DNA of 64,000 bases from Gammaproteobacteria bacterium (lineage in GTDB: Bacteria; Pseudomonadota; Gammaproteobacteria; Chromatiales; Chromatiaceae): contig JAJRZI010000075.1 of the NCBI GenBank assembly GCA_024275295.1, forward strand, positions 10,903 through 74,902. The letters are read 5' to 3'. Of this stretch, positions 3,778 to 22,117 are shown in pieces. The number at the start of each line of letters is the position of its first letter. The stretch's first letter is position 1. The position numbers and the translations under genes were made by a program. The notes beneath the pieces are model-generated. The model made no database searches and had not been told where the DNA came from. It saw only the letters and a list, made by a program, of their open reading frames with translations.

Positions 3778-3816
3778 CTTAACGTGGTGTTAAACAATTG
3801 TTAATAGCACGTTAAC
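3778..3816. promoter_or_regulatory. composite TTAA half-site array (CCTTAAC-GTGGT-GTTAAAC ... GTTAAT-AGCAC-GTTAAC), outer arms TTAACGTG/CACGTTAA inverted
   Basis: Read directly. The half-sites sit in an 11-bp register. The array lies upstream of ORF 3257-3718 and overlaps the stop codon (3812-3814) of the histidine kinase. Confidence 0.35.
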
Positions 3817-5071: not shown

Positions 5072-5744
5072 TGGTGGCTGTCAGGCGGTAGCCGATCCCA
5101 CGCACCGTATGCAGCAGTGAGGTGTCGAATGGCTTGTCGATAATCGTGCGTAGGTTATGGATGTGTACCCGCAGGGCTTCACCATCAGGCGGTTCATCTC
5201 CCCATAGAACCCGTTCAATGCGCTCGCGTCGCACCACGCTGGGTGCAGCCTGCATCAGCACTTTAAGGATCTTGAGGCCGGTGGGTGAAACAGTGAGCGG
5301 CTGGCCGGCGCGCTGAACCTCCAGGGAGTTCATATTTAGCTCCAGATCCTCCACCTGCAGTATGTTGCCGGGCAGGTTCTGAGAACCCCGCCGCTCCAGG
5401 GCGGTCAGGCGGGCGAGCAGCTCACGCAGAGAGAAGGGTTTGACCAGGTAGTCGTCCGCCCCCTGCTCGAAGCCGGCCAGACGGTCTTCTAGCGTGTCGC
5501 GAGCGGTGAGCATGATGACCGGCGTCCAGCGGCCTGCATCGGATCGCAGTTGGCGGCAAACCTCCACCCCATCAAGCCCTGGCAGCATCAAATCCAGCAC
5601 AATGGCGTCATAATCATTGGATACTGCAAGGTGTAGTCCGGTGACACCATCTGCTGCTGCATCGATTGTATGACCATGGCTTTCCAGAAAGTCGGCCAGT
5701 TCAATTGCCAGATCGTTGTTATCTTCAATCAATAGCAGATGCAT
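5055..5744 (-). CDS. OmpR/PhoB-family response regulator (PmrA/BasR-like position)
   Basis: ORF 5055..5891. The receiver domain starts at MHLLLIEDNNDLA (Met50 of the ORF, first base 5744). C-terminal winged helix (LRVHIHNLRTIIDKPF, VRGIGYRL). The longer N-terminal extension would overlap the PAP2 gene. Confidence 0.9.
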   Translation of the reverse strand: MHLLLIEDNNDLAIELADFLESHGHTIDAAADGVTGLHLAVSNDYDAIVLDLMLPGLDGVEVCRQLRSDAGRWTPVIMLTARDTLEDRLAGFEQGADDYLVKPFSLRELLARLTALERRGSQNLPGNILQVEDLELNMNSLEVQRAGQPLTVSPTGLKILKVLMQAAPSVVRRERIERVLWGDEPPDGEALRVHIHNLRTIIDKPFDTSLLHTVRGIGYRLTATNVLPS

Positions 5745-5766
5745 GCGGTACAGCATACGTGATGTG

Positions 5767-6495
5767 CTATCCGTAGTCACTTTGCCGGTATGTGATGGTC
5801 GCATTCGGATCGGCGAGGCCTCGGTTTTTGAGGATGATCCAATACCAGGCCAAACTGTTGAACCAGCAGATGGCCAGCGTCCAGAGATCATGGGAAAGGA
5901 AGTGTGCGCCTCTTAGCTGCTGGGTGAGTCCAAACAACACGCCGCAGGTGAGACCAATGCCAAGCCCATGAAAGCGCCAACGGGGATGGGTCTGGAGAAA
6001 AAAGAAGTAGAGTGCTATCAGGGCGTAGCCGCCGCTGGCATGACCCGCCGGGAAGCATTTGCCATGGCTCTGCTGTCCGGTGTGCAGCTCGAACAGCCTG
6101 AGGTAGTGTTGCTCACCTCCGTAACGCAGCAGATCCCAGGGGCAATCGACATGAGTCAGGCTCTTTCCGGCACTGACCAGCAGGGCGGAAATCGGCATGG
6201 AGAGCGCAAGGTACCATAGCGCCCGTCGATAGGGCCGCAGTTTCTCGATCCGATGGCTGGCTGCAGCCAGGCCAAAAACAAGCAGTGCCAGGGCCTTCAC
6301 CAGTTGAGCTGCATCCTTATGCAGGATGTTGGAAAAGAGAAAATTACGCCGCAGAATCCAGTGTCCCCCCTCTAGCTGGTAGAGCCAGTCAGCGACGATG
6401 AGATCAATCTGGCTCTGCTCCAGCAGCCCGACCAGAAGGAGAAAGATCATCAATGGTGCAATGAGATGGCTGCGCCAGAACTGGGAGTTAGTCAT
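5767..6495 (-). CDS. PAP2-family membrane phosphatase (lipid phosphate / lipid A phosphatase-like)
   Basis: 242 aa, multi-TM. PAP2 motifs KCFPAGHASGGY (PSGH) and LRGAHFLSHD (SRx5Hx3D). Immediately downstream of the EptA-like gene. Confidence 0.8.
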   Translation of the reverse strand: MTNSQFWRSHLIAPLMIFLLLVGLLEQSQIDLIVADWLYQLEGGHWILRRNFLFSNILHKDAAQLVKALALLVFGLAAASHRIEKLRPYRRALWYLALSMPISALLVSAGKSLTHVDCPWDLLRYGGEQHYLRLFELHTGQQSHGKCFPAGHASGGYALIALYFFFLQTHPRWRFHGLGIGLTCGVLFGLTQQLRGAHFLSHDLWTLAICWFNSLAWYWIILKNRGLADPNATITYRQSDYG

Positions 6496-8484: not shown

Positions 8485-8500
8485 TGGCACGCGTCGTGCA
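8485..8500 (+). promoter_or_regulatory. sigma54 (-24/-12) promoter TGGCACG-CGTC-GTGCA
   Basis: Matches TGGCACG-N4-TTGCA with one mismatch and correct GG-N10-GC spacing. It lies about 80 nt upstream of ORF 8579-8938 and next to a sigma54-dependent activator gene. Confidence 0.6.
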
Positions 8501-8578
8501 AGTGTTTGTTGTTGTTCAAAGAAATTAACGATAGAACCATCAGACACCTAAATTGAGAAGAGGTTAATAGCAAACAAT

Positions 8579-8938
8579 ATGGCTAATAAATTTTTATCTA
8601 CGAGTGCTTTTATCTGTGTATGTTTCCTGTCCATCCCGGTTGCCGGCTACGCCTGTGATACAGCAGGACATAGCGTGCTTGAGCAGGAAAAAAGTGAGCT
8701 TGCCGATCTGAATCTTGCCAGGCTGAAGAGTGATGAGACAGATGTGCTTCTATATAACTTCAGAACCGAGCGCTGCGTGCCCTTCAATAAAGCACATACA
8801 GAGTTGGAAGTCAGTGCGTTTATGCCCAGTGATGAAACAACGCAGGGAATGTACCAGGTATATCGCGGCCGGGGTAAAAGCCCGGTTGAGGCACTAGAAC
8901 ATACCCTCTTGTTTATGATCGAAGAGGAGCAAAGCTAA
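8579..8938 (+). CDS. small hypothetical secreted protein
   Basis: 119 aa with a signal-like N-terminus (FLSTSAFICVCFLSIPVAGYA). Bracketed by a sigma54 promoter and an intrinsic terminator. Confidence 0.55.
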   Translation: MANKFLSTSAFICVCFLSIPVAGYACDTAGHSVLEQEKSELADLNLARLKSDETDVLLYNFRTERCVPFNKAHTELEVSAFMPSDETTQGMYQVYRGRGKSPVEALEHTLLFMIEEEQS

Positions 8939-8973
8939 ATACATCTTACTTCTGTTCCATCTCCCTCAACTAT

Positions 8974-9002
8974 ACGGTGGACAATATGTCCACCGTTTTT
9001 CT
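8974..9002 (+). terminator. rho-independent terminator
   Basis: ACGGTGGACA-ATA-TGTCCACCGT (10-bp perfect arms) followed by TTTTCT. Confidence 0.75.
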
Positions 9003-9140: not shown

Positions 9141-10601
9141 ATGAACACAGTGATACGAGAGAAAAGTCCGTACAGGCAGCTAATCTACCGCCCTTTCTGG
9201 ATCACCGTAACCGGCCTGTTGATCATCCTGACCCTGGCTTTGGCAGTGCTGATCAATTCCAGCTGGCGGGCGCTCGACCGCACTGCACCATTGAAGGAAC
9301 ACCTGGCGCTGATTGAAGAGATACAGCGTTACAGTGCCGAACTGGATAACCTGGCACCAAAATTCAAAACAACACCCCCAGAAAAATGGGTCACACAACT
9401 CACCCGGCTTAACAAGGCGTTAAAGGGTACGCTGGAGAGATCACAAATATTGAGCGATGAAGCACGATCGGCGCTGTTGCATGTGATTGACACACTGCAG
9501 GGTCTTAAAGTGGGTTCCGACCTCTCAACACTGAATATAAACATTCGCACGGCCCTGCACGCGGAGGTCAATGTTCAGAATAGATTGTTGATCCTGTTGG
9601 CCCGTGATAATCGTCTTGAACTGGAAGTTGCTACATTTATTGCGATCACTCTGACCTTGCTGGGTCTGTTAATGCTCTTTTTCCTACGTCATCGTATTCT
9701 AAGACCACTTGATGACTTGAGCCTGCTGATTACCCGGCTGGGGCGGCAACCGCTTCCTCCCGTGCCATTGGATGAGGTCGACCCCCTGCTGAAACCGCTG
9801 TTTATCGATTTTAATCGGTTTGTACAGCGTCTATCCGAATTGGAACTGGCGCAGCAAAAACACCGCCTGGAGCTTGAGAGCCGGGTTCGTGATGCCACGC
9901 AATCGCTATTGGAGTATCAACATACGCTGGCGCAATCGGAACGGCTTGCCGCCGTTGGTGAGCTTACCGCCGGGCTTGCACACGAGCTGCGCAACCCGCT
10001 GGCGGGCATTCATCTGGCGCTGGCCAACCTGAGCAATGAGATTGAAGACGGTGACAAGGTCTCCCGCCTCATGCTGGTGATGGAGGAGCTGGACAGGGTG
10101 ACAAAACTGCTTAATCAGGTACTCGATCAATCACGCTATTCGCCAGAATCCGCCAGCCGTTTCAATCTTGCTGAGATGCTGGACTCTTTGTTGCAGTTGG
10201 TGCGTTATCAAATCCCCCCGGCAATTGTGATTGAGCAGACAGTGGCGAAAGATATCCAATGCAATCTGCCCCAGGGCCGATTGCGGCAGGCCATGCTCAA
10301 TCTTATACTCAATGCGGCCCAGTCCATTGGCAAGGCGCAAGGCGTCATTACCATAGAGGCCAAAACTCATCAGGAGAGACTCACTCTGCGTATTTGTGAC
10401 AGTGGACGCGGGTTTCCAAAAAACCTGCTTGAGCATGGAATACGCCCCTTTTCGACGGGTCGGGAGCACGGCACCGGGCTGGGACTCGTTATCGTGCGTC
10501 GCTTTTGTCATGAACAAGGGGGGGAGCTGACCCTGTCCAACCTGCCATCCGGGGGGGCTTGCGTAGAGATAACCCTTCCATGGAGGTCGCAACATGGCTA
10601 A
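9141..10601 (+). CDS. sensor histidine kinase (NtrB-like partner of the sigma54 activator)
   Basis: 486 aa with 2 TM. H-box AGLAHELRNPLAGI, N box LNLILNAAQS, G boxes DSGRGF and GTGLGL. Overlaps the downstream regulator by 8 nt. Confidence 0.9.
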   Translation: MNTVIREKSPYRQLIYRPFWITVTGLLIILTLALAVLINSSWRALDRTAPLKEHLALIEEIQRYSAELDNLAPKFKTTPPEKWVTQLTRLNKALKGTLERSQILSDEARSALLHVIDTLQGLKVGSDLSTLNINIRTALHAEVNVQNRLLILLARDNRLELEVATFIAITLTLLGLLMLFFLRHRILRPLDDLSLLITRLGRQPLPPVPLDEVDPLLKPLFIDFNRFVQRLSELELAQQKHRLELESRVRDATQSLLEYQHTLAQSERLAAVGELTAGLAHELRNPLAGIHLALANLSNEIEDGDKVSRLMLVMEELDRVTKLLNQVLDQSRYSPESASRFNLAEMLDSLLQLVRYQIPPAIVIEQTVAKDIQCNLPQGRLRQAMLNLILNAAQSIGKAQGVITIEAKTHQERLTLRICDSGRGFPKNLLEHGIRPFSTGREHGTGLGLVIVRRFCHEQGGELTLSNLPSGGACVEITLPWRSQHG

Positions 10602-11961
10602 CACCCTACTGATTATTGAGGATGAACCCTTGCTGGGTGATGAGCTGTCGCGCCACTTCAAGCGACAGGGTTTCCATGTGGTTTTGGCCTCCAGCATCCA
10701 ACAAGCCCGGCACTGGTTATTAAAACAGCGGTTGGAACCACTGGTTGTCATTTCAGATATGAACCTGCCCGATGGTAACGGACTGGATCTGCTGGAGGAG
10801 ATTGGCGATCTGCGGGAGGCCAGTGAGTGGCTGTTTCTGACCGCTTATGGATCGGTGCCAGAGTCGGTTAGGGCGCTACAGCTTGGTGCCTATGACTTTC
10901 TCGAAAAGCCCTGTGATCTGGGGCGGCTTGACCTCGTTGTCGCCAGTGCCCAGCGCAGTGCCCAGGCTCAGCGGCGCCTGCGGGAACAGCACAGCATCCA
11001 CAATCAGCGCTATTCGGTTGATGCATTCCTGGGTGTGAGCCAACAGGCGCAACAGATACGGGAGATGCTCAAACGCCTCTGTGAAATCCCGTTCAGCTCG
11101 GTCATCATCAGCGGAGAGACCGGCACAGGAAAGGGATTGATCGCCAAGATCCTGCATCACTCCGGTCCCCGATCCGCCGCCCCCTTCATCGCAGTCAACT
11201 GTGCTGCCCTGCCGCATGATCTACTGGAGTCAGAGCTGTTTGGCCACGAAGCGGGAGCGTTCACTGGCGCAAAAAAGATGCGCCGCGGCCTGTTTGAACA
11301 GGCGGATGGGGGCACACTGTTTCTGGATGAGATTGGGGAGATGCCGCTGGATCTACAGAGCAAACTACTCAAAGCCATCGAGGATCAGAAAGTCCGGCGA
11401 CTGGGCAGTGAGGTTGAAACCGAGATCGACATCCAGATTATCGCAGCCAGCAATCAGAACCTGACGCAACAGGTCAGCGAAGGTCGATTCCGGGGCGACC
11501 TCTTTCATCGTTTAAGCCTGTTTGAACTTAAACTGCCATCACTACGAGAACGCAAGGAGGATCTTGAACAGCTGGTGCCTGCGCTCATCAGTGAATTTAA
11601 TCTCAAGGCCCCCCGGCAGGTGACGAAGATTCCACAACAGGCGTGGCAACAGCTCCAGCGTCATGACTGGCCCGGCAACGTGCGCGAATTGCGCAATGTT
11701 ATTGAGCGTTGTGTCCTGTTTGCGGGGGATGAAAATCTGCCGCTACAGTGGCTGCAGCTTGACACAATGCTCTCCCCGTCCCATAGCGCTGATGATGTCC
11801 TCATCATCCCGCTTGATGGCAGTATCTCGCTGGATGCGATGGAACGCCATATTATCAAAGAGGCGCTGCAGCGCTGCAACAACAGCACTGCTGCTGCGGC
11901 CCGGATGCTGGGGGTAAGCCGCGAAAAGCTGCGCTATCGAAAACAGAAACATGCACTGTGA
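10594..11961 (+). CDS. sigma54-dependent response regulator (NtrC family)
   Basis: Receiver domain ([21 protein letters not shown]), AAA+ domain ([31 protein letters not shown]), and C-terminal HTH ([15 protein letters not shown]). Confidence 0.95.
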
Positions 11962-11985
11962 TCATTTAAAGAGAGTGAGGTAGAG

Positions 11986-13425
11986 ATGTCGACAACAGAG
12001 GATCAGAGCAGCGGCTTGACCGCTTTTGAGCGGCGATCTGCCATCTCACTCGGCGCGGTGTTCTCCCTGCGTATGCTGGGTCTGTTTATGATTCTGCCGG
12101 TTTTTTCCCTGTATGCAGAGCATCTGCAGGGGGTGACTCCGACCCTGACCGGCCTGGCCATCGGAGCCTACGGTCTGACCCAGGCACTGCTACAGATCCC
12201 TTTTGGTATGCTTTCCGACCGCATTGGGCGCAAGCGGGTTATTATCATGGGTCTGCTGATCTTTGCTGCGGGCAGCGTGGTAGCGGCGCTCTCCGGTTCG
12301 ATCTGGGGTGTCATCGCGGGTCGCGCCCTCCAGGGGGCGGGGGCTATCGCTGCTGCGGTGATGGCATTGATGGCGGATCTGACCCAGGAGGAGCACCGGG
12401 CAAGGGCGATGGCGATCTTCGGCGGCAGCATTGGCATGTCGTTCACCCTGGCGCTGGTATTGGGGCCGGTGCTTAATGGCTGGATCGGTGTCTCCGGCAT
12501 CTTCTGGCTGACTGGCGGGCTGGCGCTCTCGGGTATCCTGATGACGCGCTATTGGGTTCCTCAACCGTTGGTCAGTACCTTTCACCGGGATGCCGAGCCT
12601 GTTCCCTCCCAATTCAAACGGGTGCTGGCCAATCCGCAACTGCTGCGCCTGGATTTCGGCATCCTGGTCATGCACCTGCTGATTACCGCTACCTTTGTGG
12701 CGCTCCCCCTGGTGTTGCGGGATGTGGCGGGTATGCCCCAGGAACATCACTGGTGGGTCTATCTGCCAGTGCTGCTGCTGAGCGTCATGACGATGTTTCC
12801 ATTCCTGGTTCTGTCTGAGAGACGAGGCCGAACGAAGGAGGTTTTTCTTGGGGCGATCACCCTGCTCGCACTGGCTGAGTTCGGGCTGGCGGAGTTTCAT
12901 GCCGGTCTTATGCAGATTGTCCCACTGCTTTTTCTCTTCTTCCTGGCCTTCAATATCTTGGAGGCCAGCCTGCCATCGCTGGTCTCCAAGCTGGCTCCGG
13001 CGGGCAGCAAGGGGACGGCCCTGGGGGTCTATAGCACCTCGCAGTTTCTTGGTGCCTTTCTGGGTGGTGGGCTGGGTGGCTGGCTGCTGGGGGTCTATGG
13101 CCCGGGCGGCGTATTCATGCTGTGCGGGGCGGCTGTGACGGTGTGGCTGCTGGTTGCATCTGGCATGCGCCAGCCGGCAAACCTGAAAACCCGTATGATT
13201 CATACCGTCCAGCTGGATGCCCAGGAAGCGAGACGGCTGGAGCAGAACCTGCTCACGGTTTCCGGTGTTGCTGAAGCCGTGGTGATTACTGAAGAGCGCA
13301 TGGCCTATCTCAAGGTGGTGGAGTCCGAGCTGGATGAGAAGGCGCTGGATGAATTTCTCTGGTATCTGCGTTCCAGCCATGGCGCTGAAACAGCGCAAGA
13401 CGCCGAGGCTTCGTTCATTGCATGA
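11986..13425 (+). CDS. yajR: MFS transporter, YajR family with C-terminal YAM-type domain
   Basis: 479 aa. The N-terminal half aligns by eye with E. coli YajR (VFSLRMLG.FM.LPV, GLTQA..QIPFG.LSDRIGRK, GRALQG.GAIAAAVMAL). It carries a ~80-aa soluble C-terminal extension. The stop overlaps the next gene (ATGA at 13422). Confidence 0.8.
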   Translation: MSTTEDQSSGLTAFERRSAISLGAVFSLRMLGLFMILPVFSLYAEHLQGVTPTLTGLAIGAYGLTQALLQIPFGMLSDRIGRKRVIIMGLLIFAAGSVVAALSGSIWGVIAGRALQGAGAIAAAVMALMADLTQEEHRARAMAIFGGSIGMSFTLALVLGPVLNGWIGVSGIFWLTGGLALSGILMTRYWVPQPLVSTFHRDAEPVPSQFKRVLANPQLLRLDFGILVMHLLITATFVALPLVLRDVAGMPQEHHWWVYLPVLLLSVMTMFPFLVLSERRGRTKEVFLGAITLLALAEFGLAEFHAGLMQIVPLLFLFFLAFNILEASLPSLVSKLAPAGSKGTALGVYSTSQFLGAFLGGGLGGWLLGVYGPGGVFMLCGAAVTVWLLVASGMRQPANLKTRMIHTVQLDAQEARRLEQNLLTVSGVAEAVVITEERMAYLKVVESELDEKALDEFLWYLRSSHGAETAQDAEASFIA

Positions 13426-15428
13426 ATAGTCCTATCGTGCTGGCATTGACACATCTGTCATTGGTACTTTTGTTGGTGGCTGCTCTCTGGGCGGTGATTG
13501 GCCCACAGGCCAGAGGGCGCCACATCTTCTTTGGTGTGCTGCTGCTGGCTTCCCTCTCTGCACTGGTTGCCGGTCTCGGCGCTCTGCTCGGGCATACGGC
13601 GTCTGCTGAATACCCCGCACTCGGTCTGCCCTGGTTGCACTGGCATCTGACGCTTGATCCGCTGGCGGGCTTTTTTCTGGCGCTGATTGGCCTGATCAGT
13701 ACAGCGGTCAGCCTCTATGGGCCGGATTATCTGCTCGAACACCGCCATGACCGAACCGCTTTGGGACATCTGGGATTTTTCACGGCGCTGTTCGTGCTGG
13801 GGATGGAACTGGTGGTGCTGGCCGGTGATGCCTTCGCCTTTATGGTGGCCTGGGAGCTGATGTCACTTGCCAGCTATTTTCTCGTTGTCTTCCGCCATGA
13901 GCAGGCGGCTAACCGGCGCGCCGCCTTTCTCTATCTGCTAATGGCGCAGATTGGCGGCCTCTTTATCCTGCTCGGTTTTGGTGTGCTGGCGAGCTTCGGC
14001 GGCGGGTTCGCTTTTGACGCCATGCGGGAGGCGGTGCTCTCGCCGCTGTGGGCGAGCGTGGCCTTCGGGCTGGCCTTTGTCGGCTTTGGCATGAAGGCGG
14101 GGCTGGTGCCTCTGCATGCCTGGCTGCCGGAGGCGCATCCGGTGGCGCCTTCCCATGTGTCGGCGCTGATGTCCGGGGTGATGCTCAAGGTGGCGGTCTA
14201 TGGTTTTATCCGTTTTGTGTTTGATCTTATCGGTGATCTTCAATGGCAGTGGGGGGTGGTGGTGTTGGCGGTGGGTAGCGTGTCAGCCCTGATGGGAGTG
14301 CTCTATGCCCTGATGCAGCATGATCTCAAGCGGCTGCTGGCCTATCACTCGGTGGAGAACATCGGCATCATCTTTATTGGATTGGGGCTGGGGATCATCT
14401 TTCTGGCCAGTGGGCAGCCGCTGCCAGGGGTGCTGGGGCTGGTGGCCGCCCTCTACCACTGTCTCAACCACGCCCTGTTCAAGAGCCTGCTGTTCCTCGG
14501 TGCGGGCGCTATTCTGCACACCTCTCACGAGCGGGATCTGGAACGCATGGGCGGTCTGCTGCGGCGCATGCCCTGGACCGGACTCTTTTTTCTGGTGGGT
14601 TGTCTCAGCATCTCGGCGCTGCCGCCGTTCAACGGCTTTGTATCCGAGTGGCTCACCTTTCAGACCGCGCTCCAGGCCTGGTCCCTGGAGGGGGGTGTGA
14701 TGCGTAGTCTGATCCCGATTGCTGCTGCCATGCTGGCCCTGACGGGTGCGCTGGCGGCGGCCTGCTTCGTCAAGGTCTACGGTGTGGCCTTTCTGTGGCA
14801 GGCACGCAGCCGTCCGGTTCGCAGGGCGCGTCCGACGCCTCTCGGCATGCGGCTGGGACAGGGACTGTTGGCACTGCTCTGTCTGCTGGCCGGGGTCTTT
14901 CCGACGGGGCTGTTGCAACTGCTGGATGCGGTGCCCCAACAGTTATTTGGGCAGGGTCTGACCGAGGCCACCGCCCACGGCTGGCTCTGGCTGACCCCGC
15001 TGTCGGCCCGGACTGCCAGTTATGCAGCGCCCATCGTGGTGATCGCGCTGGCCGCAGTCTGGCTGCTCGGGGTCTGGTGGCTGCGCCGCCTGGCGGTGAA
15101 CAGAATTCGGGTCTACGATCCCTGGGATTGTGGTTTTGCCTCTTCCATCCCCCGACCAAGCATGCAGTACACAGCCACCGCCTTTACCCAGCCGATCCGC
15201 CGGATCTTCGGGGTGCTGTTTCACCTGGATGAGCGGGTGGAGCGGGGGGAGGAGATCCGTTATCAACTACAGGTCGGTGATCGGGCCTGGGGCCTTTTCT
15301 ATCAGCCGGTTGAGCGCATCATCAGGGCAGCGGCCCGGCGCATCGGTTTTCTGCAATCGGGTCAGGTTCGCGTCTATCTCGGTGGTGCTTTGATGACCCT
15401 GCTGGTGCTGTTATGGCTGATCTCCTGA
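13422..15428 (+). CDS. HyfB/NuoL/MrpA-like antiporter-type membrane subunit of a hydrogenase-4-like (Ehr-type) complex
   Basis: 668 aa, polytopic. WLPEAHPVAPSHVSALMSG motif of the complex I L/M/N family. Confidence 0.85.
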   Translation: MNSPIVLALTHLSLVLLLVAALWAVIGPQARGRHIFFGVLLLASLSALVAGLGALLGHTASAEYPALGLPWLHWHLTLDPLAGFFLALIGLISTAVSLYGPDYLLEHRHDRTALGHLGFFTALFVLGMELVVLAGDAFAFMVAWELMSLASYFLVVFRHEQAANRRAAFLYLLMAQIGGLFILLGFGVLASFGGGFAFDAMREAVLSPLWASVAFGLAFVGFGMKAGLVPLHAWLPEAHPVAPSHVSALMSGVMLKVAVYGFIRFVFDLIGDLQWQWGVVVLAVGSVSALMGVLYALMQHDLKRLLAYHSVENIGIIFIGLGLGIIFLASGQPLPGVLGLVAALYHCLNHALFKSLLFLGAGAILHTSHERDLERMGGLLRRMPWTGLFFLVGCLSISALPPFNGFVSEWLTFQTALQAWSLEGGVMRSLIPIAAAMLALTGALAAACFVKVYGVAFLWQARSRPVRRARPTPLGMRLGQGLLALLCLLAGVFPTGLLQLLDAVPQQLFGQGLTEATAHGWLWLTPLSARTASYAAPIVVIALAAVWLLGVWWLRRLAVNRIRVYDPWDCGFASSIPRPSMQYTATAFTQPIRRIFGVLFHLDERVERGEEIRYQLQVGDRAWGLFYQPVERIIRAAARRIGFLQSGQVRVYLGGALMTLLVLLWLIS

Positions 15429-16381
15429 ACAGTCCGGCAGCCTGGGGGCTGGCCCTGGTGCAGGGGCTGCTGTTTCTGCTGGCGGCGCCGCTGTTGACCG
15501 CCTGGGTGCGGCGGGTCAAGGCGCGGCTGCAGAACCGGCGCGGCGCACCCCTGTTGCAGCCCTACCGGGATCTCTACAAGTTGTTCGCCAAGGAGGCGAT
15601 GGTGGCGCGCACCACCTCCGGCCTGTTCCTGGCTGCCCCCTATATCGTCTTCGGCAGTACCCTGCTGGCGGGCGCCGTGGTGCCGCTGCTTGCGGTGAAT
15701 CTGCCCACCGCCGCCATCGCCGATGTCATTGTGCTGGCGGGGTTTTTCGCCCTGGGGCGCTTCTTTCTCACCCTGGCGGGGATGGATGCGGGCACCGCCT
15801 TTGGCGGCATGGGCGCCTCGCGTGAGATGCTGGTCTCGGCACTGGCGGAGCCGGCCCTGCTGATGGCCGTCTTCACCCTGGCCATGACCGCCCACAGTAC
15901 CAATCTCTCCAGCGTGGTGGCGTATCAGCTCGATGCCGGACTGGTGCTGCGTCCATCCTATCTGTTCGCCCTGTTGGGACTGGTGCTGGTGGCTATCGCC
16001 GAGACCGGCCGTATCCCGGTGGACAATCCGGCCACCCATCTGGAGCTGACCATGATTCACGAAGCGATGATCCTGGAGTACAGCGGCCGCCATCTTGCCT
16101 TGATGGAGGGAGCAGCGCAGCTGAAGCTGATGATCTATGGGGTGCTGATCAGCAATATCTTCTTCCCCTGGGGGATTGCCACTGAATTCACCCCGGCCGC
16201 GCTGCTGCTGGGATTGGTTGCAATCACTGCCAAACTGGCTCTGCTCGGGGTGCTGCTGGCGGTGGCGGAGACGGTGCTGGCCAAGATGCGCCTGTTCCGG
16301 GCGCCGGAGTTCCTCAATATGGCGCTGCTGTTCTCGGTGCTGGGGCTGTTGAGCCATGTGATCCTGGAGGTGGGAGCGTGA
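15413..16381 (+). CDS. HyfC/HycD/NuoH-like membrane subunit
   Basis: 322 aa, polytopic. NuoH/HycD-like (IAETGRIPVDNPATHLELTM, EYSG). 16-nt overlap with the preceding gene. Confidence 0.8.
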   Translation: MADLLNSPAAWGLALVQGLLFLLAAPLLTAWVRRVKARLQNRRGAPLLQPYRDLYKLFAKEAMVARTTSGLFLAAPYIVFGSTLLAGAVVPLLAVNLPTAAIADVIVLAGFFALGRFFLTLAGMDAGTAFGGMGASREMLVSALAEPALLMAVFTLAMTAHSTNLSSVVAYQLDAGLVLRPSYLFALLGLVLVAIAETGRIPVDNPATHLELTMIHEAMILEYSGRHLALMEGAAQLKLMIYGVLISNIFFPWGIATEFTPAALLLGLVAITAKLALLGVLLAVAETVLAKMRLFRAPEFLNMALLFSVLGLLSHVILEVGA

Positions 16382-17058
16382 GCATTACACAGCTCTCCCT
16401 GCTGGAGCAGGCGGTGTTTGTGCTGGCCGCCCTGGTGCTGTTCACCTCCTTTGCCCTGCTGGGGCAGGCGCGGCTGCTCTCCACCATCCACCTGTTTGCC
16501 TGGCAGGGGCTGGCACTGGCGCTGGTCAGTAGCCTGGTGGCGACGGCCACGAATGAACCTCATCTCTATCTTTCGGCGCTGCTGACGCTCAGCCTCAAGG
16601 CACTGCTCATTCCCTGGATGCTGCACCGGCTGGTGCGCCGCCTGGAGCTGGAGCGTCATGCGGAGCCGTTACGCCACCCCGTTATGGTGATGCTGGCGGG
16701 TACGGCGCTGGTGATCTTCAGCTATTGGATCGTACTGCCCATCGAGCGCCTGGAGCTGGCGGCCACCCGCAATATCATCGCCATTAGTCTGGCGGTGATC
16801 CTGATCGGCCTGCTGATCATGGTGATGCGGCGTCAGGCGGTGATTAAGGTGATCGGCTTCATGTCGATGGAGAACGGCCTGTTCCTGGCGGCGGTGGCCG
16901 CCACCCACGGCATGCCGCTGGTGGTGGAGCTGGGGGTCGCCTTCGATGTGCTGATTGCCGCTGTGCTGTTTGGTGTCTTCTTTTTTCATATCAGTGAAAG
17001 CATCGAATCGCTGGATGTGGATCGCCTGAACCGGCTGCGCGCCAGGGATAAATCATGA
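16378..17058 (+). CDS. HyfE-like small membrane subunit
   Basis: 226 aa, about 7 TM. Position and size match hydrogenase-4 component E. GTGA overlap with the preceding gene. Confidence 0.7.
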   Translation: MSITQLSLLEQAVFVLAALVLFTSFALLGQARLLSTIHLFAWQGLALALVSSLVATATNEPHLYLSALLTLSLKALLIPWMLHRLVRRLELERHAEPLRHPVMVMLAGTALVIFSYWIVLPIERLELAATRNIIAISLAVILIGLLIMVMRRQAVIKVIGFMSMENGLFLAAVAATHGMPLVVELGVAFDVLIAAVLFGVFFFHISESIESLDVDRLNRLRARDKS

Positions 17059-18527
17059 GCCTGTTGACGATCACGGTTTTCCTCCCGTTGGCGGGGGGCA
17101 TTCTGTTGGCGTTTGTCCGTTCGTCGACAGTGGCCGGTTGGATCAATGTGGGGCTGTCGGGCTTGACCCTGGCCGCTTCGGTAGCGCTGGCGCTGGGGGT
17201 GTTGGATTCGGGTGCCTATGCCGTGCCGGGGTTTCATCTTGATGCCTTCAATGTCTATCTGGTGGTGCTGACCGCGCTGGTGGGGTTGACCACAGGCATC
17301 TTCTCGCGGCCCTATATGGCCTTTATCCGGCTGGAGAGAGGGATCAGCGCCAAGCGCATGCGGCTCTACCATTCGATGTACCAGGGCTTCATGTTCACCA
17401 TGCTGCTGGCGCTCACCACCGACAACCTGGGGGTGCTCTGGGTGGCGGTGGAGGGGGCGACCCTGGCCACGGTGCTGCTGGTCAGCCTCTACCGCACCCC
17501 GGAGTCGGTGGAGGCGGCGTGGAAATATTTCATCCTCTGCGGCGTGGGTATTGCACTGGCCCTGTTCGGCACCGTGCTGGTCTATTTTGCCGCTCAGCAT
17601 GTGCTGACCGATCCTGCACAGGGGCTGATCTGGACCCGGCTGCATCAGGCGGCTGGCCGTTTAGATCCTGCGGTGATGAGTATCGCCTTTGTCTTTCTGC
17701 TGGTGGGTTACGGCACCAAGGTGGGGCTGGTGCCGCTGCACAACTGGTTGCCGGATGCCCACTCCGAGGGGCCGACGCCGGTCTCCGCCGTGCTCTCCGG
17801 GTTGCTGCTCAATGTGGCCCTCTACGCCGTGGTGCGTTTCAAGATGTTGGTGGACGGTTCGCTGGCGGGCACGCCCAAGGCGGCCATTGCGGGCCATCTG
17901 ATGATGGGGTTTGGGTTGCTCTCGTTCCTAGTGGCCGGGCTGTTCCTGCACCGTCAGCGTGATATCAAACGCCTGTTCAGCTACTCATCCATCGAGCACA
18001 TGGGGCTGATGACCTTTGCCTTTGGCATCGGCGGGCCGTTGGCCACCTTTGGAGCGCTGCTGCACATGCTGGTGCATTCGCTTACCAAGTCCGCCATCTT
18101 CATCACTGTGGGGCATGCCACCCATATTGCAGGAACCCAGGCCATCGACAATATCCGCGGCCTGATCCGCACCCAGCCGGCGGTGGGGTGGGGGTTGCTC
18201 ATCGGGGTGGCGGCCATTGCCGGTTTTCCTCCGTTTGGGGTTTTTACCAGTGAGTTCCTGTTGCTTTCGGCGACGATGCAGAGCTGGCCCTGGCTCACCG
18301 TGGCGTTGCTGATGGGGCTGGCGGTGGCCTTTGCCGGTCTGTTCCGCCACCTGCATCCGATGGTCTATAGTGCCGCGCCGGATGGGCAGCAGGCAGTGAG
18401 AGCCAATATGTTGCCGGTGGCGCTGCATCTGGGGCTGGTGCTCTGGCTGGGGCTGGCCGTTCCTCCATTTCTGGCCCGCTGGCTAGATCAGGCAACGCTG
18501 TTGATTACCGGGAGCCGCCTGTTATGA
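17055..18527 (+). CDS. HyfF/NuoN/M-like antiporter-type membrane subunit
   Basis: 490 aa. WLPDAHSEGPTPVSAVLSG motif. ATGA overlaps at both ends. Confidence 0.85.
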   Translation: MSLLTITVFLPLAGGILLAFVRSSTVAGWINVGLSGLTLAASVALALGVLDSGAYAVPGFHLDAFNVYLVVLTALVGLTTGIFSRPYMAFIRLERGISAKRMRLYHSMYQGFMFTMLLALTTDNLGVLWVAVEGATLATVLLVSLYRTPESVEAAWKYFILCGVGIALALFGTVLVYFAAQHVLTDPAQGLIWTRLHQAAGRLDPAVMSIAFVFLLVGYGTKVGLVPLHNWLPDAHSEGPTPVSAVLSGLLLNVALYAVVRFKMLVDGSLAGTPKAAIAGHLMMGFGLLSFLVAGLFLHRQRDIKRLFSYSSIEHMGLMTFAFGIGGPLATFGALLHMLVHSLTKSAIFITVGHATHIAGTQAIDNIRGLIRTQPAVGWGLLIGVAAIAGFPPFGVFTSEFLLLSATMQSWPWLTVALLMGLAVAFAGLFRHLHPMVYSAAPDGQQAVRANMLPVALHLGLVLWLGLAVPPFLARWLDQATLLITGSRLL

Positions 18528-20110
18528 GTCGATTCGATTGGTTGCCCGATTTTCTGGCGAAGCTGGAGGATGCTTCCATAACTGCACCCTGTGGCCCCGC
18601 CTCTGGTGGCACCCCGGCCAGCTTGTTGGTGGTTGATGCGGCGGACTGGGGTCGGGTGGCTTCAGTGGCTATATCCTTCAACTGCCGCTTGGCCGGACTC
18701 TGGGGGGATCAGCGGGAGGGAAAAATTATGCTCTTCTGCTGCCTGGAGCGCCAGGGTGACTACCTGCTGCTGCGTACTGCCGTGCCTCTCTCCCACCCGG
18801 AACTGCCCTCGCACACGTTTTGGTTTCCGTCCGCTGACCGGCTGGAGCGCCATGCGCGGGATCTGTTGGGGGTAATCTTTACCCGTCATCCCGATTCCCG
18901 GCGCTGGACCCGTCATCGGGCCTGGCCCGAAACGGATTATCCACTGCGCAGCGATTTTCCTGCAGCGGGCAGAAGGACAACCAAGACCCCGCAGGATGAG
19001 GAGTACCCCTTTCTGCGCGCCAAGGGTACGGGGGTCTACGAGATCCCGGTGGGGCCAGTGCATGCCGGGATCATTGAGCCGGGGCATTTCCGTTTTCAGG
19101 CGGTGGGTGAGGAGGTGCTCAATCTGGAGGAGCGGCTGGGTTATCTGCACAAGGGGATCGAAAAGATCGCTGTGGGGCGTGATTCGGCGGGGTTGGCCCG
19201 GCTGGCCGGGCGGGTCTCCGGCGACTCCACCGTGGCCCATGCCTGGGCTGCCTGCCAGGCTATGGAGCGGGCCGCCGGGATCGAGCCACCGCCACGGGGG
19301 CTGGCGCTGCGTGCCCTGCTGGCGGAGCGGGAGCGCATCGCCAATCATCTGGGCGATATCGGTGCTATCTGCAACGATGTGGGTTTTGCCTTCGCACTCT
19401 ATCAGTTCTCTCGTCTGCGAGAGATCTGGCAGCGCCGCAGTGCCGAGCTGTTCGGCCATCGCCTGCTGATGGATCGGGTGGTGCCGGGTGGGGTCGGTGT
19501 TGATCTGGAGAGTAACGGGAGCCTAAGCCTGCGGGAGGATCACCGCCTGCTGCGCAAGGAGTTGAACGGCCTTTTCGATATTCTGGAGGATCATCCCTCA
19601 CTGGAGGATCGACTTTTGACAACCGGGCGGCTGACAGCAGAGAGTGCCCGCAGTCTGGGATCTCTTGGCTATGTGGGCAAGGCCTCCGGGCAAGGCTTTG
19701 ACGTGCGCCACAATAATCCCTATGCCCCCTATGATCGCATGGAGGTGGCGGTTCCGGTATTCGAAGAGGGGGATGTGGCGGCGCGTGTGCGGGTGCGCAT
19801 GGAGGAGGTTCGCATCTCCCTGGATCTGCTTGATTGTCTGCTTGCGGGGCTTCCGGCGGGGGAGGTGCGGCAGGAGATGCCGTCGCTGATCTCCAGTGCC
19901 GAAGGGGTGGGGTTCGTCGAGGGGTGGCGCGGTGAGATCATCACCTATGTGCGTTTTGACGGGGAAGGGCGGGTGGCCCGTTTCTTTCCTCGTGATCCGA
20001 GTTGGTTTACCTGGCCAGCGCTGGAGCGTATCGTGCTGGGCAATATCGTGCCTGACTTTCCGGTCTGCAATAAGTCGGTGAATGGTTCCTATTCGGGCCA
20101 TGATCTGTGA
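18524..20110 (+). CDS. HyfG/HycE-like large subunit (fused NuoC-NuoD type) lacking the Ni-Fe cysteine ligands
   Basis: 528 aa. VGPVHAGIIEPGHFRF matches group-4 large subunits. However, the RxCGxCxxxH motif reads RVSGDSTVAH (19211-19240) and the DPCxxC motif reads DFPVCNKS (20054-20077). Confidence 0.85.
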   Translation: MSRFDWLPDFLAKLEDASITAPCGPASGGTPASLLVVDAADWGRVASVAISFNCRLAGLWGDQREGKIMLFCCLERQGDYLLLRTAVPLSHPELPSHTFWFPSADRLERHARDLLGVIFTRHPDSRRWTRHRAWPETDYPLRSDFPAAGRRTTKTPQDEEYPFLRAKGTGVYEIPVGPVHAGIIEPGHFRFQAVGEEVLNLEERLGYLHKGIEKIAVGRDSAGLARLAGRVSGDSTVAHAWAACQAMERAAGIEPPPRGLALRALLAERERIANHLGDIGAICNDVGFAFALYQFSRLREIWQRRSAELFGHRLLMDRVVPGGVGVDLESNGSLSLREDHRLLRKELNGLFDILEDHPSLEDRLLTTGRLTAESARSLGSLGYVGKASGQGFDVRHNNPYAPYDRMEVAVPVFEEGDVAARVRVRMEEVRISLDLLDCLLAGLPAGEVRQEMPSLISSAEGVGFVEGWRGEIITYVRFDGEGRVARFFPRDPSWFTWPALERIVLGNIVPDFPVCNKSVNGSYSGHDL

Positions 20111-20119
20111 GCTGAATCC

Positions 20120-20644
20120 ATGCTGAGAGTCCTGAACAAGATCTTCCGCACCGGCGTCCTGACCGAGACCCCGCCGGTGATCAGTGAGTCCGAACTGGAA
20201 CGGTGCGGTATCGAGGTCAGGCGCCGGATTGATGCCCGCTTTGGCGGCAGTCTGGCGATCCGTCAGGTGGATGCCGGCTCCTGCAACGGCTGCGAACTGG
20301 AGATCCACGCCCTGAACAACCCCTATCATGATGTAGAGCGTTTTGGCATCCACTTTGTCGCCTCTCCCCGTCATGCCGATGCCCTGCTGGTTACCGGCCC
20401 GGTCTCCCGTCACATGGAGGCGGCGTTGCGTCGTGTCTATAATGCAACACCGGCGCCAAAGTTTGTGATCGCTGCCGGTGACTGCGCCTGTGACGGCGGT
20501 GAGTTCGGAATCTCGTATGCCAGTTGTGGTGCAGTGGAGAATGTCCTGCCGGTGGATGTGAAGATAGCGGGCTGTCCACCTGCCCCGCTGGATCTGCTGC
20601 GGGGGCTGCTTGCTGCCCTGGGCGAAGGTTCAGATCAATCCTGA
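20120..20644 (+). CDS. HyfI/HycG/NuoB-like small subunit (4Fe-4S cysteines retained)
   Basis: 174 aa. DAGSCNGCELE ... GDCACDGG ... GCPPAP. Confidence 0.85.
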   Translation: MLRVLNKIFRTGVLTETPPVISESELERCGIEVRRRIDARFGGSLAIRQVDAGSCNGCELEIHALNNPYHDVERFGIHFVASPRHADALLVTGPVSRHMEAALRRVYNATPAPKFVIAAGDCACDGGEFGISYASCGAVENVLPVDVKIAGCPPAPLDLLRGLLAALGEGSDQS

Positions 20645-20659
20645 CACGGAACTGATACG

Positions 20660-22117
20660 TTGCTGATAAGGAAAAACATTACAGCAGTGCTGCCTATTAT
20701 TGGCTTTCTGTGCATGGTTTTCAGTCCGACATTCCTGATTCCGGCGCTGCTGTCGCTCTACTATGGGGATGGGGAGTTTACCCATTTTATACTCAGTTTT
20801 GTCGCCGTATTTGTGCTGGGTTTGTTGCTATGGACGCCATCCCACGGACAGACGCTGCCACGGCGCAAGAAAGATGGCTTCCTTGTGGTGGTTCTATTCT
20901 GGATGGTGTTGAGCGTGGTGGGCGCCTCCCCTTTTCTGTTTGGCCTGCAACTCTCGCCGGTGGATGCCTGGTTCGAGTCTGTATCCGGTTTGACGACCAC
21001 CGGGGCCACCGTCATCTCTGGCCTGGATCTGCTGCCGCGTTCGATGCTCTTCTACCGTCAGGAGTTGCAGTGGTTTGGCGGCATGGGACTTATTGTGCTG
21101 GCGGTCGCGGTGCTGCCGTTGCTGGGTATTGGTGGTATGTCCATGTATCGGGCTGAGACACCGGGGCCGATGAAGGAGGATAAACTGGCTCCGCGTCTTG
21201 CCGGAAGCGCCCGCATTCTGTGGGTTATCTATGTGGGCCTGACATTAGCCTGTGCGCTGGCCTTCTGGGTGGCGGGGATGACGCCGTTCGATGCGGTGGC
21301 CCATAGTCTTAGCACCATCTCCACCGGAGGGTTTTCCACCCATGATGCGAGTTTTGCCTATTTTGACAGTGTGGCGGCGGAGAATGTTGCCACACTGTTT
21401 ATGATATTGGGTGCCATCAATTTCAGTATTCACTATCTGGTCTGGCACAATCGCCGCCCTGGAGATTATCTGCGGGATGCGGAGAGCCGCACCTTTCTTG
21501 TCCTGGTCGTGGCTGTGGTGCTGCTGGTCGCTGTGGCGCTGAAGCTGACGGGCTATCATGATGGTGTTCTGCAGGCCCTTGAGCAGGCCTCTTTTGAGGT
21601 GGTCTCCGTGGTGACCAGTACAGGCTACGGGATCGATGATTTCTCGGGCTGGCCGCTGTTTCTGCCGCTGTTGATGATCCTCATCAGTTTCATCGGGGGT
21701 TGTGGTGGCTCCACCGCCGGGGGGATGAAGGTGATGCGGGTGCTGGTGTTGGCCAAAATGGGTTACCGGGAGATTATCCGGTTGCCTCACCCTAAAGGCA
21801 TCTTCCCCGTCACGGTGGGCGGGCGGGTGCTGAAGGATGAGACACTGCAGGCAATCCGGGGCTTCTTTTCGCTCTATATCATGACCTTTGTTATCTTGAT
21901 GTTGCTGATGATGCTGGCGGGGCTGGACCAAATCTCGGCCTTCTCGGCCGTAGCGACCTGTATGAACAATCTGGGGCCAGGTCTGGGGACGGTAGCCCAG
22001 ACCTTCGGTGATGTCAGTGATATGGGTAAGCTGGTGGCGGTGGCTGCGATGCTGCTTGGACGGTTGGAGATATTTTCCGTGCTGGTTCTTTTTCATCCGG
22101 ATTTTTGGAGAGATTGA
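20660..22117 (+). CDS. trkH: TrkH-family potassium uptake protein
   Basis: 485 aa, polytopic, with repeated pore-loop segments (SGLTTTGATV, ISTGGFSTHD, TSTGYG, GGSTAGGMKV). TTG start 16 nt after the preceding gene. Confidence 0.9.
   Translation: MLIRKNITAVLPIIGFLCMVFSPTFLIPALLSLYYGDGEFTHFILSFVAVFVLGLLLWTPSHGQTLPRRKKDGFLVVVLFWMVLSVVGASPFLFGLQLSPVDAWFESVSGLTTTGATVISGLDLLPRSMLFYRQELQWFGGMGLIVLAVAVLPLLGIGGMSMYRAETPGPMKEDKLAPRLAGSARILWVIYVGLTLACALAFWVAGMTPFDAVAHSLSTISTGGFSTHDASFAYFDSVAAENVATLFMILGAINFSIHYLVWHNRRPGDYLRDAESRTFLVLVVAVVLLVAVALKLTGYHDGVLQALEQASFEVVSVVTSTGYGIDDFSGWPLFLPLLMILISFIGGCGGSTAGGMKVMRVLVLAKMGYREIIRLPHPKGIFPVTVGGRVLKDETLQAIRGFFSLYIMTFVILMLLMMLAGLDQISAFSAVATCMNNLGPGLGTVAQTFGDVSDMGKLVAVAAMLLGRLEIFSVLVLFHPDFWRD

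Follow-up and report, generated by a model that had tools for sequence, protein, structure and literature searches.

What does a hydrogenase-like membrane complex do when its large subunit lacks the cysteines that hold nickel and iron, and how did its genes come to lie between those of two transporters? The question is raised by six genes at positions 13422-20644 of a 64,000-nucleotide (nt) stretch of contig JAJRZI010000075.1 from a gammaproteobacterium (the whole stretch is called the window below), which are flanked by genes for a YajR-like transporter of the major facilitator superfamily (MFS) and for TrkH. We found that the encoded complex is of the Hyq/Ehr type (Ehr, energy-converting hydrogenase related), a member of a known and widespread family whose function is not agreed upon. 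Our preferred reading, held with a confidence somewhat above even, is that it is a redox-coupled ion pump devoid of Ni-Fe ligands, and that its genes were horizontally inserted as a cassette between the MFS gene and trkH. The original prediction, made from the DNA letters, had assigned the complex to the Ehr class; this was right, though the family was already known, and the list of open reading frames (ORFs) places the gene coordinates, overlaps and motif strings where they had been reported. The ten ORFs between 9141 and 22117, and with them all genes and motifs described for this locus, lie on the + strand, and the reading frames of the six hyq genes are intact.

The large subunit was examined for its Ni-Fe ligand positions. 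The gene hyqG/ehrL (18524-20110) encodes a fused NuoC-NuoD-like protein of 528 amino acids (aa) without the Ni-Fe cysteines. Its closest solved relative is HycE of the E. coli formate hydrogenlyase (7z0s_E, E 1.4e-67), and the motifs were paired in an HMMER alignment to HycE and in two MAFFT alignments with HycE, HyfG and NuoCD, all of which were concordant. The N-terminal Ni-Fe motif RxCGxCxxxH, which reads RVCGICGFAH in E. coli HycE and HyfG, is replaced by RVSGDSTVAH (19211-19240), both cysteines having become serine, as had been predicted. At the C-terminus, the string DFPVCNKS (20054-20077) had been taken as the equivalent of DPCxxC with one cysteine left. However, its C515 pairs with an isoleucine of HycE, and the true counterpart of DPCYSC in HycE and HyfG is NGSYSG (residues 520-525, 20081-20098), with one cysteine replaced by serine and the other by glycine; it forms part of NGSYSGHDL (20081-20107), which stands at the place of DPCxxCxDR. 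None of the four Ni-Fe ligands is left in HyqG. Alignment with, among others, HycE, HyfG and NuoD had been named beforehand as the check on the absence of the four cysteines, and the Cys-less conclusion is strengthened because zero rather than one C-terminal ligand remains. According to the alignment, the end of HyqG coincides with the end of mature HycE, there being no cleavable C-terminal extension.

HyqG shares 48% identity with the HyqG of plasmid pRL11, 57% with a Methylocalor plasmid protein, 32-33% with HycE/HyfG and 25% with NuoCD. It reaches no equivalog cut-off in NCBIfam, but the Pfam family NiFeSe_Hases is still above its cut-off at residues 210-276. An AlphaFold2 monomer model (predicted local distance difference test, pLDDT, 78.7; predicted template modelling score, pTM, 0.85) superimposes on HycE with a template modelling (TM) score of 0.80 and on NuoCD with one of 0.75. 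Since pLDDT is low at the pocket, we used this model for fold assignment only.

The small subunit has kept what the large one lacks. The NuoB-like protein of 174 aa encoded by hyqI/ehrS (20120-20644) has one [4Fe-4S] site. In the alignment, its cysteines C55, C58, C122 and C152 stand where HycG, HyfI and NuoB have their cluster ligands; they show the hydrogenase-type CxxC spacing, and all four are present in each of 70 relatives. The claim that all four are kept was therefore borne out. For the published HyqI the cysteines are given as Cys-55, Cys-58, Cys-112 and Cys-152 (PMC3357923); the numbers 55, 58 and 152 are the same here, and the remaining ligand is C122 vs the published Cys-112.

We also looked for the partners that a hydrogenase or complex I would require. 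In tblastn searches of the 64-kb window, E. coli HyfA, HyfH, HyfJ, HycB, HycF, HycH and HycI gave nothing credible, nor did HypA, HypB, NuoE, NuoF, NuoG and NuoI; the best E value obtained with the HyfH, HycF and NuoI queries was 0.013. This agrees with the prediction that a NuoI-type ferredoxin subunit and maturation proteins (HypA/B, HycI) have no homologue in the window. Likewise, none of the gene products in the window contains the ferredoxin-type CxxCxxCxxxCP, and Pfam scans of the window ORFs of at least 200 aa revealed no formate dehydrogenase, a search made without an FdhF query. HyqG is unable to bind a canonical Ni-Fe centre, and, given the lack of a NuoI-type subunit, of Ni-Fe cysteines and of a cleavable extension, it can be concluded that the complex is not a conventional [NiFe]-hydrogenase.

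The membrane arm is made of four subunits. Two of them are antiporter-like: the 668-aa product of hyqB (ehrA-like, 13422-15428; NuoL/HyfB type), which scores 818.8 bits vs a cut-off of 667 with the NCBIfam model 'hydrogenase 4 subunit B', and the 490-aa, HyfF-type product of hyqF (17055-18527), with 727.7 bits vs a cut-off of 543 for 'hydrogenase 4 subunit F'. Between them, hyqC (15413-16381) encodes a NuoH/HycD-like membrane subunit of 322 aa (Pfam NADHdh, E 3e-42), and hyqE (16378-17058, GTG start) a HyfE-like membrane subunit of 226 aa with a NuoK-like C-terminal part, for which the NCBIfam model 'hydrogenase 4 membrane subunit' gives E 7e-26, under its cut-off, and Pfam Oxidored_q2 a weak match. 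Residues E145, K225, K256 and E409 of HyqB pair with E144, K234, K265 and E407 of NuoM, in the pattern of E. coli HyfB; HyqF has E133, K222, N253 and E400, the pattern of E. coli HyfF; and HyqC has the seven acidic positions that are common to NuoH, HycD and HyfC (D53, D104, E146, D204, E211, E217 and E222). Judged by these residues, the ion path of the membrane arm appears to be complete.

With its six subunits, the complex is a minimal relative of both complex I and the group-4 hydrogenases. E. coli hydrogenase 4 and hydrogenase 3 of formate hydrogenlyase (structure 7z0s) represent its nearest solved structure and its nearest characterised enzyme. With them it shares the HyfB/HyfF-type Glu/Lys pattern and the CxxC spacing, whereas the four Ni-Fe cysteines, HyfH/HycF, HyfA/HycB, HyfD, the C-terminal extension with HycI, and the formate dehydrogenase partner have no counterpart here. 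With complex I it has in common the core of NuoB, NuoCD, NuoH, NuoK-like and NuoL/M/N-like subunits, and NuoD likewise has neither a Ni-Fe site nor an extension. However, the window lacks NuoEFG, NuoI, NuoA and a separate NuoJ, and NuoB has a tandem CC where HyqI has CxxC.

Relatives of HyqG number in the thousands, and the best of them (64-72% identical) come from sulfur-oxidising Gammaproteobacteria. When one genome per species is counted, at least 568 species carry the complex. Most of them are sulfur-oxidising Gammaproteobacteria, with genera such as Sedimenticola, Thiodiazotropha, Thiohalobacter, Halothiobacillus, Thioalkalivibrio, Sulfuricaulis and Thiogranum, and Chromatiaceae are also found among them. 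For a comparison of neighbourhoods we fetched 80 related loci. All loci whose contig covers the whole operon have its genes in the order B-C-E-F-G-I, which is also that of pRL11. The only generally recurrent neighbour is an 86-aa helix-turn-helix gene (hyqR), found immediately upstream of the operon in 42 of the 63 loci that were informative; the hyqR-type protein is 66% identical to the helix-turn-helix protein encoded upstream of hyfB on Rhizobium johnstonii pRL11. In the window hyqR was not found (best tblastn E 2.8). The other flanks are almost all unique, with a SulP plus a Sel1-repeat gene in about six loci and a CNNM/CorC-type gene in about four.

A plasmid search returned the same operon in Rhizobium, Azospirillum and Cupriavidus replicons (46-50% identity among the matches listed); on pRL11 of R. 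johnstonii 3841 it is annotated as helix-turn-helix regulator, hyfB, NuoH, hydrogenase-4 E, hydrogenase-4 F, NuoC and NuoB. Database names for the Cys-less family include 'Ni,Fe-hydrogenase III large subunit', 'nickel-dependent hydrogenase large subunit' and 'hydrogenase 4', as well as 'hydrogenase expression protein HypE' and 'NADH-quinone oxidoreductase subunit C'. On a 148-kb plasmid of Candidatus Methylocalor cossyra (OZ026885.1; locus L085:127-11872), the hyq operon lies between transposase genes and has an extra ORF of 103 aa between hyfF and the large-subunit gene.

The operon hyqRBCEFGI was first described in Azorhizobium caulinodans, and Rhizobium leguminosarum bv. viciae and Azospirillum brasilense are listed as further carriers (PMC2650096, PMC3357923). 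The published HyqG is a fused NuoC/NuoD protein without either CxxC motif, one of six structural proteins (PMC3357923). The window shares with Azorhizobium Hyq the six structural genes in the same order and the lack of HyfA, HyfD, HyfH and HyfJ, and with the Azorhizobium/alphaproteobacterial proteins a large subunit that ends in ...CNKSxNxSYSGHDL. It differs in having neither hyqR nor a NifA-type control region, and in that the cassette sits in a foreign operon; moreover, Azorhizobium is a diazotrophic alphaproteobacterium, while the host of the window is a sulfur-oxidiser-like gammaproteobacterium. Of the cysteines reported as invariant in alphaproteobacterial HyqG (C258, C491 and C497 of A. 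caulinodans), two would correspond to C283 and C515 of the window, as judged from a 24-residue length offset and the alignment with the pRL11 protein. At the place of the third, which pRL11 HyqG has kept as Cys, the window and its gammaproteobacterial relatives have a glycine (Gly521).

In papers on Ehr complexes of Geobacter, Nitrospira, ammonia-oxidising archaea and Margulisbacteria, the function is called unknown (PMC7894505, PMC6349859, PMC10284858, PMC12342949, PMC10432482). The subunit composition has been published (PMC7894505). Ehr (also read as Ech-hydrogenase related) received its name in Geobacter sulfurreducens (GSU0739-0745), the reports from the other groups being later, and it matches the window by description, with NuoL-like, HyfE-like, large and small subunits lacking the Ni-Fe CxxC motifs. 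However, proteomics or the genes nearby have tied these Ehr complexes to formate dehydrogenase, in contrast to the window, where the Pfam scans found none.

Could such a complex nevertheless turn over hydrogen? The main rival to our reading, proposed by the Ludwig laboratory, is an unconventional 'endo-hydrogenase', i.e., an H2:quinone oxidoreductase with a site that faces the cytoplasm and lacks the four canonical cysteines; H2 would be oxidised under ample oxygen and evolved at the expense of the proton-motive force (pmf) when oxygen is scarce. The window complex belongs to the same family as Azorhizobium Hyq and shares its six-gene unit. In A. caulinodans, deletion of hyq slowed diazotrophic growth and, in a hupSL-deleted background, cut microaerobic H2 evolution by about 80%, an effect that was also seen in a nifK background; H2 was still produced at high rates when nifK and hupSL were both mutated (PMC2650096, PMC3357923). 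It was therefore an overstatement of the original prediction that no substrate is known, since one laboratory reports hyq-dependent H2 turnover in vivo (PMC2650096, PMC3357923), and its expectation of no H2 phenotype is contested because the Azorhizobium hyq deletion lowers H2 evolution. We considered that this phenotype might be a simple indirect effect of nitrogenase and rejected the idea, as the nifK hupSL mutant still evolves H2.

The hydrogenase-type arginine R469 is also kept in 86 of 90 Cys-less representatives, which speaks for the endo-hydrogenase as well. However, it would demand H2 chemistry in the absence of the known Ni-Fe ligands, all four of which are missing, and the authors themselves rate a Ni-Fe site as uncertain to unlikely. 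HyqG has no C-terminal extension, and HypA, HypB and HycI have no homologue in the 64-kb window. The enzyme was never purified, and a biochemical follow-up was not found in the literature; expression of Ehr in Nitrospira moscoviensis is not raised by H2 (PMC12342949), and papers on hydrogenase classification treat such complexes as non-hydrogenases (PMC6349859, PMC10284858). In addition, the in vivo phenotype is possibly indirect in another manner, as the A. caulinodans strains retain the hupUV sensory hydrogenase genes (PMC2650096). Taken together, we regard the endo-hydrogenase as an unlikely explanation, albeit the least unlikely of the rivals considered here.

If the ligands are gone, the question is what became of their positions. 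When 1.84 billion cluster representatives were searched exhaustively with HMMER, 988 proteins matched at E <= 1e-30, and the best 150 (50%-identity clusters) were inspected. At least 90 of these 150 are full-length Cys-less representatives, and 18 have all four cysteines, interleaved from rank 28 on. The 90 Cys-less proteins share a consensus, [SA]-G-D-[ST] at the first site and N-L-S-Y-[SA]-G-x-D at the second. In the numbering of the window HyqG (positions 232-527), position 232 is Ser in 72 and Ala in 16 of the 90, position 233 Gly in 84, position 234 Asp in 76, and position 235 Ser in 39 and Thr in 22. At position 469, the hydrogenase-type Arg of the 'RG' motif, 86 have Arg, and towards the C-terminus position 522 is Ser in 82, position 523 Tyr in 78, position 525 Gly in 82 and position 527 Asp in 88. 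Among 26 close relatives, RVSGDSTVAH is nearly invariant and the last 22 residues are almost invariant. Because the replaced positions are conserved, the pattern argues for a HyqG pocket that serves as a functional site of a different kind, one that would have been re-specified and not decayed.

The loss of catalytic cysteines and maturation genes could also be understood as the decay of a former hydrogenase operon that has no current function. With six intact frames, a ratio of nonsynonymous to synonymous substitution rates (dN/dS) of 0.05 and replaced motifs that are nearly invariant across hundreds of species, we consider this explanation extremely improbable.

How the six genes came to lie between the MFS gene and trkH can be read from close relatives of the locus. 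The window MFS protein is 97% identical to that of locus L088 and 90% identical to those of L086 and L087 (hydrothermal-vent metagenome), and the window TrkH is 90% identical to the TrkH of the latter two. In L086 and L087 the gene order is EptA, a small ORF, histidine kinase, sigma54 regulator, MFS and TrkH; the hyq genes are absent and the MFS and TrkH genes are spaced by 72 nt. At the DNA level, L086 matches the window at 11972-13388 with 83.7% identity and resumes at 20661-22117 with 85.3%, so that 7.27 kb of the window stand in place of 83 nt of L086, in which no remnants of hyq were found. The inserted cassette of about 7.27 kb (13389-20660) is made up of hyqBCEFGI, preceded by a 12-codon MFS tail and followed by a spacer of 15 nt. 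It gave the MFS protein a new 12-residue tail and left the YAM domain (residues 413-444) intact. Locus L088 carries the cassette as well and matches the window without a break from the MFS gene into hyqB (92.9%), and the pair of histidine kinase and sigma54 regulator genes upstream of the MFS gene is present in L086, L087 and L088 alike. A direct repeat of 6-12 nt common to both cassette junctions was not found in a short k-mer check, made without a tRNA or repeat scan.

The relationships of the complex differ from those of its host. UvrB is 85% identical to that of Sedimenticola species, which makes the host Sedimenticolaceae-like, whereas concatenated HyqB, HyqF and HyqG group the window with Thiohalobacter, Thiohalophilus and Chromatiales metagenome-assembled genomes (74-77% identity). 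The Sedimenticola hyq operons are 68-72% identical to the window over the same three proteins and carry hyqR. Horizontal acquisition is thus indicated, because a close relative has MFS and TrkH with nothing between them, and the six genes look like a recently acquired cassette from a Thiohalobacter-like lineage that arrived without hyqR. The presence of the operon on plasmids, in Methylocalor with transposase genes on either side, speaks for the same reading. For the first 819 nt of hyqB, dN/dS between the window and L088 is 0.05, compared with 0.06 for the MFS gene and 0.04 for the regulator gene; hence the cassette has been in use since these two lineages split. What is new here is how the locus was assembled by insertion, that the cassette is portable and lacks its regulator, and that the residues replacing the Ni-Fe ligands form a conserved signature.

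Does the neighbourhood carry information about function? The original prediction had suggested an ion- or solute-coupled module, and a corresponding rival is that the complex, the YajR-like MFS protein and TrkH form one functional unit that energises or regulates, for example, the transport of K+ or of a solute, which would account for the coupling of their translation. The genes are indeed tightly packed on a single strand: the MFS stop codon and the hyqB start overlap as ATGA at 13422, and trkH follows hyqI after 15 nt. L088 shows the same arrangement, and purifying selection acts on it. SulP, CNNM/CorC-type, P-type ATPase and MFS genes, assigned by eye, occur sporadically beside hyq operons. 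Another metagenome contig (L125:17-7239) offers a second, independent case of Ehr next to TrkH: a Cys-less operon of the Ehr type, only distantly related (its large subunit is 33% identical and reads RISGNESIAY and DLSYAGNDL at the two motifs), is followed on the same strand, at a distance of 1.2 kb, by a gene for a TrkH protein with 53% identity, and a 226-aa ORF without Pfam match lies between them.

On the other hand, neither an MFS nor a TrkH gene lies within 10 kb of the complex in any of the 80 related genomes, whose flanks otherwise nearly all differ. A homologue of the sigma54 regulator is beside the complex in none of the 80 loci, and an extra partner gene (electron donor, ferredoxin or formate dehydrogenase) conserved across these loci was not seen beside the operon. 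Among 77 TrkH-related metagenome loci, hyq genes are upstream in none but L125 and an MFS gene in none; more distant MFS homologues (61-65% identity) are located between uvrA and ssb. Since L086 and L087 have the MFS/TrkH pair without the complex, the pair predates the cassette. The module did not hold, therefore, against the lack of linkage in 80 genomes, a 90%-identical relative without the complex, and a complex that groups with another lineage than its host, and we think it quite improbable. In our reading of an inserted cassette, the neighbourhood of the window tells little about the function of the complex, because the cassette was inserted between pre-existing genes. As a separate observation, at L097:8507-11222 a TrkH gene (66% identical) is followed by a YajR-like MFS gene (67% identical), in reversed order vs the window, and the MFS/TrkH pairing may thus recur independently of the hyq cassette.

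What, then, could the complex do? In the mechanism that we propose from its homologies, the antiporter-like HyqB and HyqF, the NuoH-like HyqC, and HyqE would form an ion-translocating membrane arm, and HyqG together with HyqI and its one [4Fe-4S] cluster a small cytoplasmic head. A soluble low-potential carrier would dock on the face of HyqI that NuoI covers in complex I, and a substrate would bind in the remodelled pocket at the junction of HyqG, HyqI and HyqC, the HyqI cluster relaying electrons between the two. As there is no NuoI-type subunit, this cluster would have to exchange electrons directly with its soluble partner. The redox step could be coupled, in either direction, to the movement of H+ or Na+ via HyqC, HyqE, HyqF and HyqB. 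In the version that we prefer, the pmf would drive electrons from quinol onto ferredoxin or flavodoxin. This version is favoured because the carriers of the operon are aerobic or microaerobic lithoautotrophs and diazotrophs in need of low-potential reductant, organisms that receive electrons from their donors at the level of quinones or cytochromes, and because the Azorhizobium operon, which is under NifA and sigma54 control, is required for normal diazotrophic growth (PMC2650096).

A complex with intact ion-path residues, a single cluster, no electron-input module and no NuoI-type wire might also be a non-redox cation/proton antiporter of the Mrp kind, in which the HyqG/HyqI head would be structural or regulatory, e.g., a redox sensor that gates ion flux. 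However, the four cluster cysteines of HyqI are invariant, and the pocket residues and R469 are conserved beyond the needs of a purely structural role. Furthermore, the Mrp antiporter (MrpA-G) has no NuoB- or NuoD-like subunits, whereas the operon of the window includes genes of both kinds (NuoB-like and NuoCD-like); in the Pfam scans, none of its products matched a family of the MrpE, MrpF or MrpG type. We give this antiporter about as little credence as the transport module.

Returning to the redox-coupled pump, a more far-reaching idea is that the Cys-free pocket beside the single [4Fe-4S] cluster is a true active site whose chemistry would be new to the complex I superfamily. We put this forward tentatively, as a possibility that is less probable than its opposite. 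Candidate chemistries are (a) reverse electron transfer, in which the pmf would push electrons of the quinol pool onto ferredoxin or flavodoxin, and (b) H2 turnover of the Azorhizobium type without canonical Ni-Fe ligands. Candidate (a) would provide aerobic or microaerobic lithoautotrophs and diazotrophs with electrons of low potential, in keeping with where the family occurs.

Several points weigh against the reading of a horizontally inserted redox pump. The mechanism is drawn from homology only, and substrate, electron donor and transported ion have been demonstrated in no member of the family. With Gly233 standing in the alignment where NuoD of complex I has its quinone-ligating tyrosine, a complex-I-like quinone site is not evident. 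The pLDDT of the HyqG model falls below 50 at residues 158-208 and 508-528, i.e., in the parts that build the pocket. In vivo uptake and evolution of H2 have been attributed to the orthologous Azorhizobium operon (PMC3357923), and if this attribution is correct, the statement that the complex is not a hydrogenase is wrong. As to the insertion, an outgroup with the arrangement of histidine kinase, regulator, MFS and TrkH genes was not found among the loci at hand, and a precise deletion of the cassette on the way to L086 is conceivable. The GC content at third codon positions (GC3) is 0.67-0.83 in the hyq genes vs 0.59-0.71 in the flanking genes and is above that of most of the window, but L086 is GC3-rich throughout (0.68-0.90). 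For this reason GC3 is only a supportive argument for horizontal transfer; taken as strong evidence at the outset, it was downgraded once L086 proved GC3-rich. Finally, L125 weakly hints that the TrkH neighbourhood is perhaps not wholly accidental, a single case among about 50 informative loci, which is not far from chance.

These results matter beyond one locus, since Ehr/Hyq complexes are among the commonest relatives of complex I that have no agreed function. Hydrogenase-like database names inflate predictions of H2 metabolism and constitute a systematic pitfall of annotation, and gene neighbourhood is a poor guide to function in this family. The six structural genes travel together, and selection continues to act on them in the absence of hyqR. 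If the pocket is catalytic, this would bear on the supply of low-potential reductant in aerobic lithotrophs and diazotrophs and on the evolution from hydrogenase to complex I. If it is the true active site, the cassette would be a natural example of six genes that are sufficient and portable.

The cassette now lies in a longer run of genes. The histidine kinase gene (9141-10601, Pfam) and the gene for the sigma54-dependent response regulator (10594-11961, Pfam) are probably in the same transcription unit as the MFS gene, which begins after a gap of 24 nt (11986-13425; 479 aa; Pfam MFS_1 plus YajR_YAM, the latter exactly on its cut-off of 26 bits). Within the run, overlaps of 4, 16, 4, 4 and 4 nt occur at 13422, 15413, 16378, 17055 and 18524, respectively, and 9 nt separate hyqG from hyqI. 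The last gene, trkH (20660-22117, TTG start), encodes 485 aa (NCBIfam TrkH, E 2e-162). The two regulatory genes, the MFS gene and trkH are probably now co-transcribed with the cassette. In L086, trkH starts with ATG at the position homologous to the TTG at 20660, and the cassette junction is immediately upstream; the insertion may thus have changed translation initiation of trkH.

No sigma54 promoter was found directly upstream of the MFS or hyq genes, and near-consensus sigma54 sites in the whole window (40) are fewer than would be expected by chance (50). The best match of the region, and the only well-placed one, is TGGCACGCGTCGTGCA at 8485-8500. On its 3' side lies an ORF of 119 aa (8579-8938) with a signal-peptide-like N-terminus and no Pfam match, followed by a strong hairpin terminator at 8974-8996; L086 has an ORF of 114 aa at the same place. 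The adjacent sigma54 regulator may act on this unit (8485-8996). An Rfam scan of 8-24 kb returned chance matches below threshold only. Further upstream, an OmpR-type regulator and a histidine kinase form a pair at 3812-5891, on the strand opposite to trkH; the same pair is downstream of trkH in L086 (11711-13675), which indicates a local rearrangement between the lineages.

Apart from this locus, the window contains at 34742-63097 an island with at least 10 genes for multihaem c-type cytochromes (paired-CXXCH, cytochrome c7 and MtrC/MtrF-like domains), the largest of which encodes 778 aa at 57658-59994. Four NHL beta-propeller genes, two genes of the cytochrome b561 type and a BamB/PQQ-propeller gene also belong to it, and from about 46 kb onward the GC content (0.42-0.48) is lower than elsewhere in the window. 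In its composition, the island resembles gene clusters for extracellular electron transfer.

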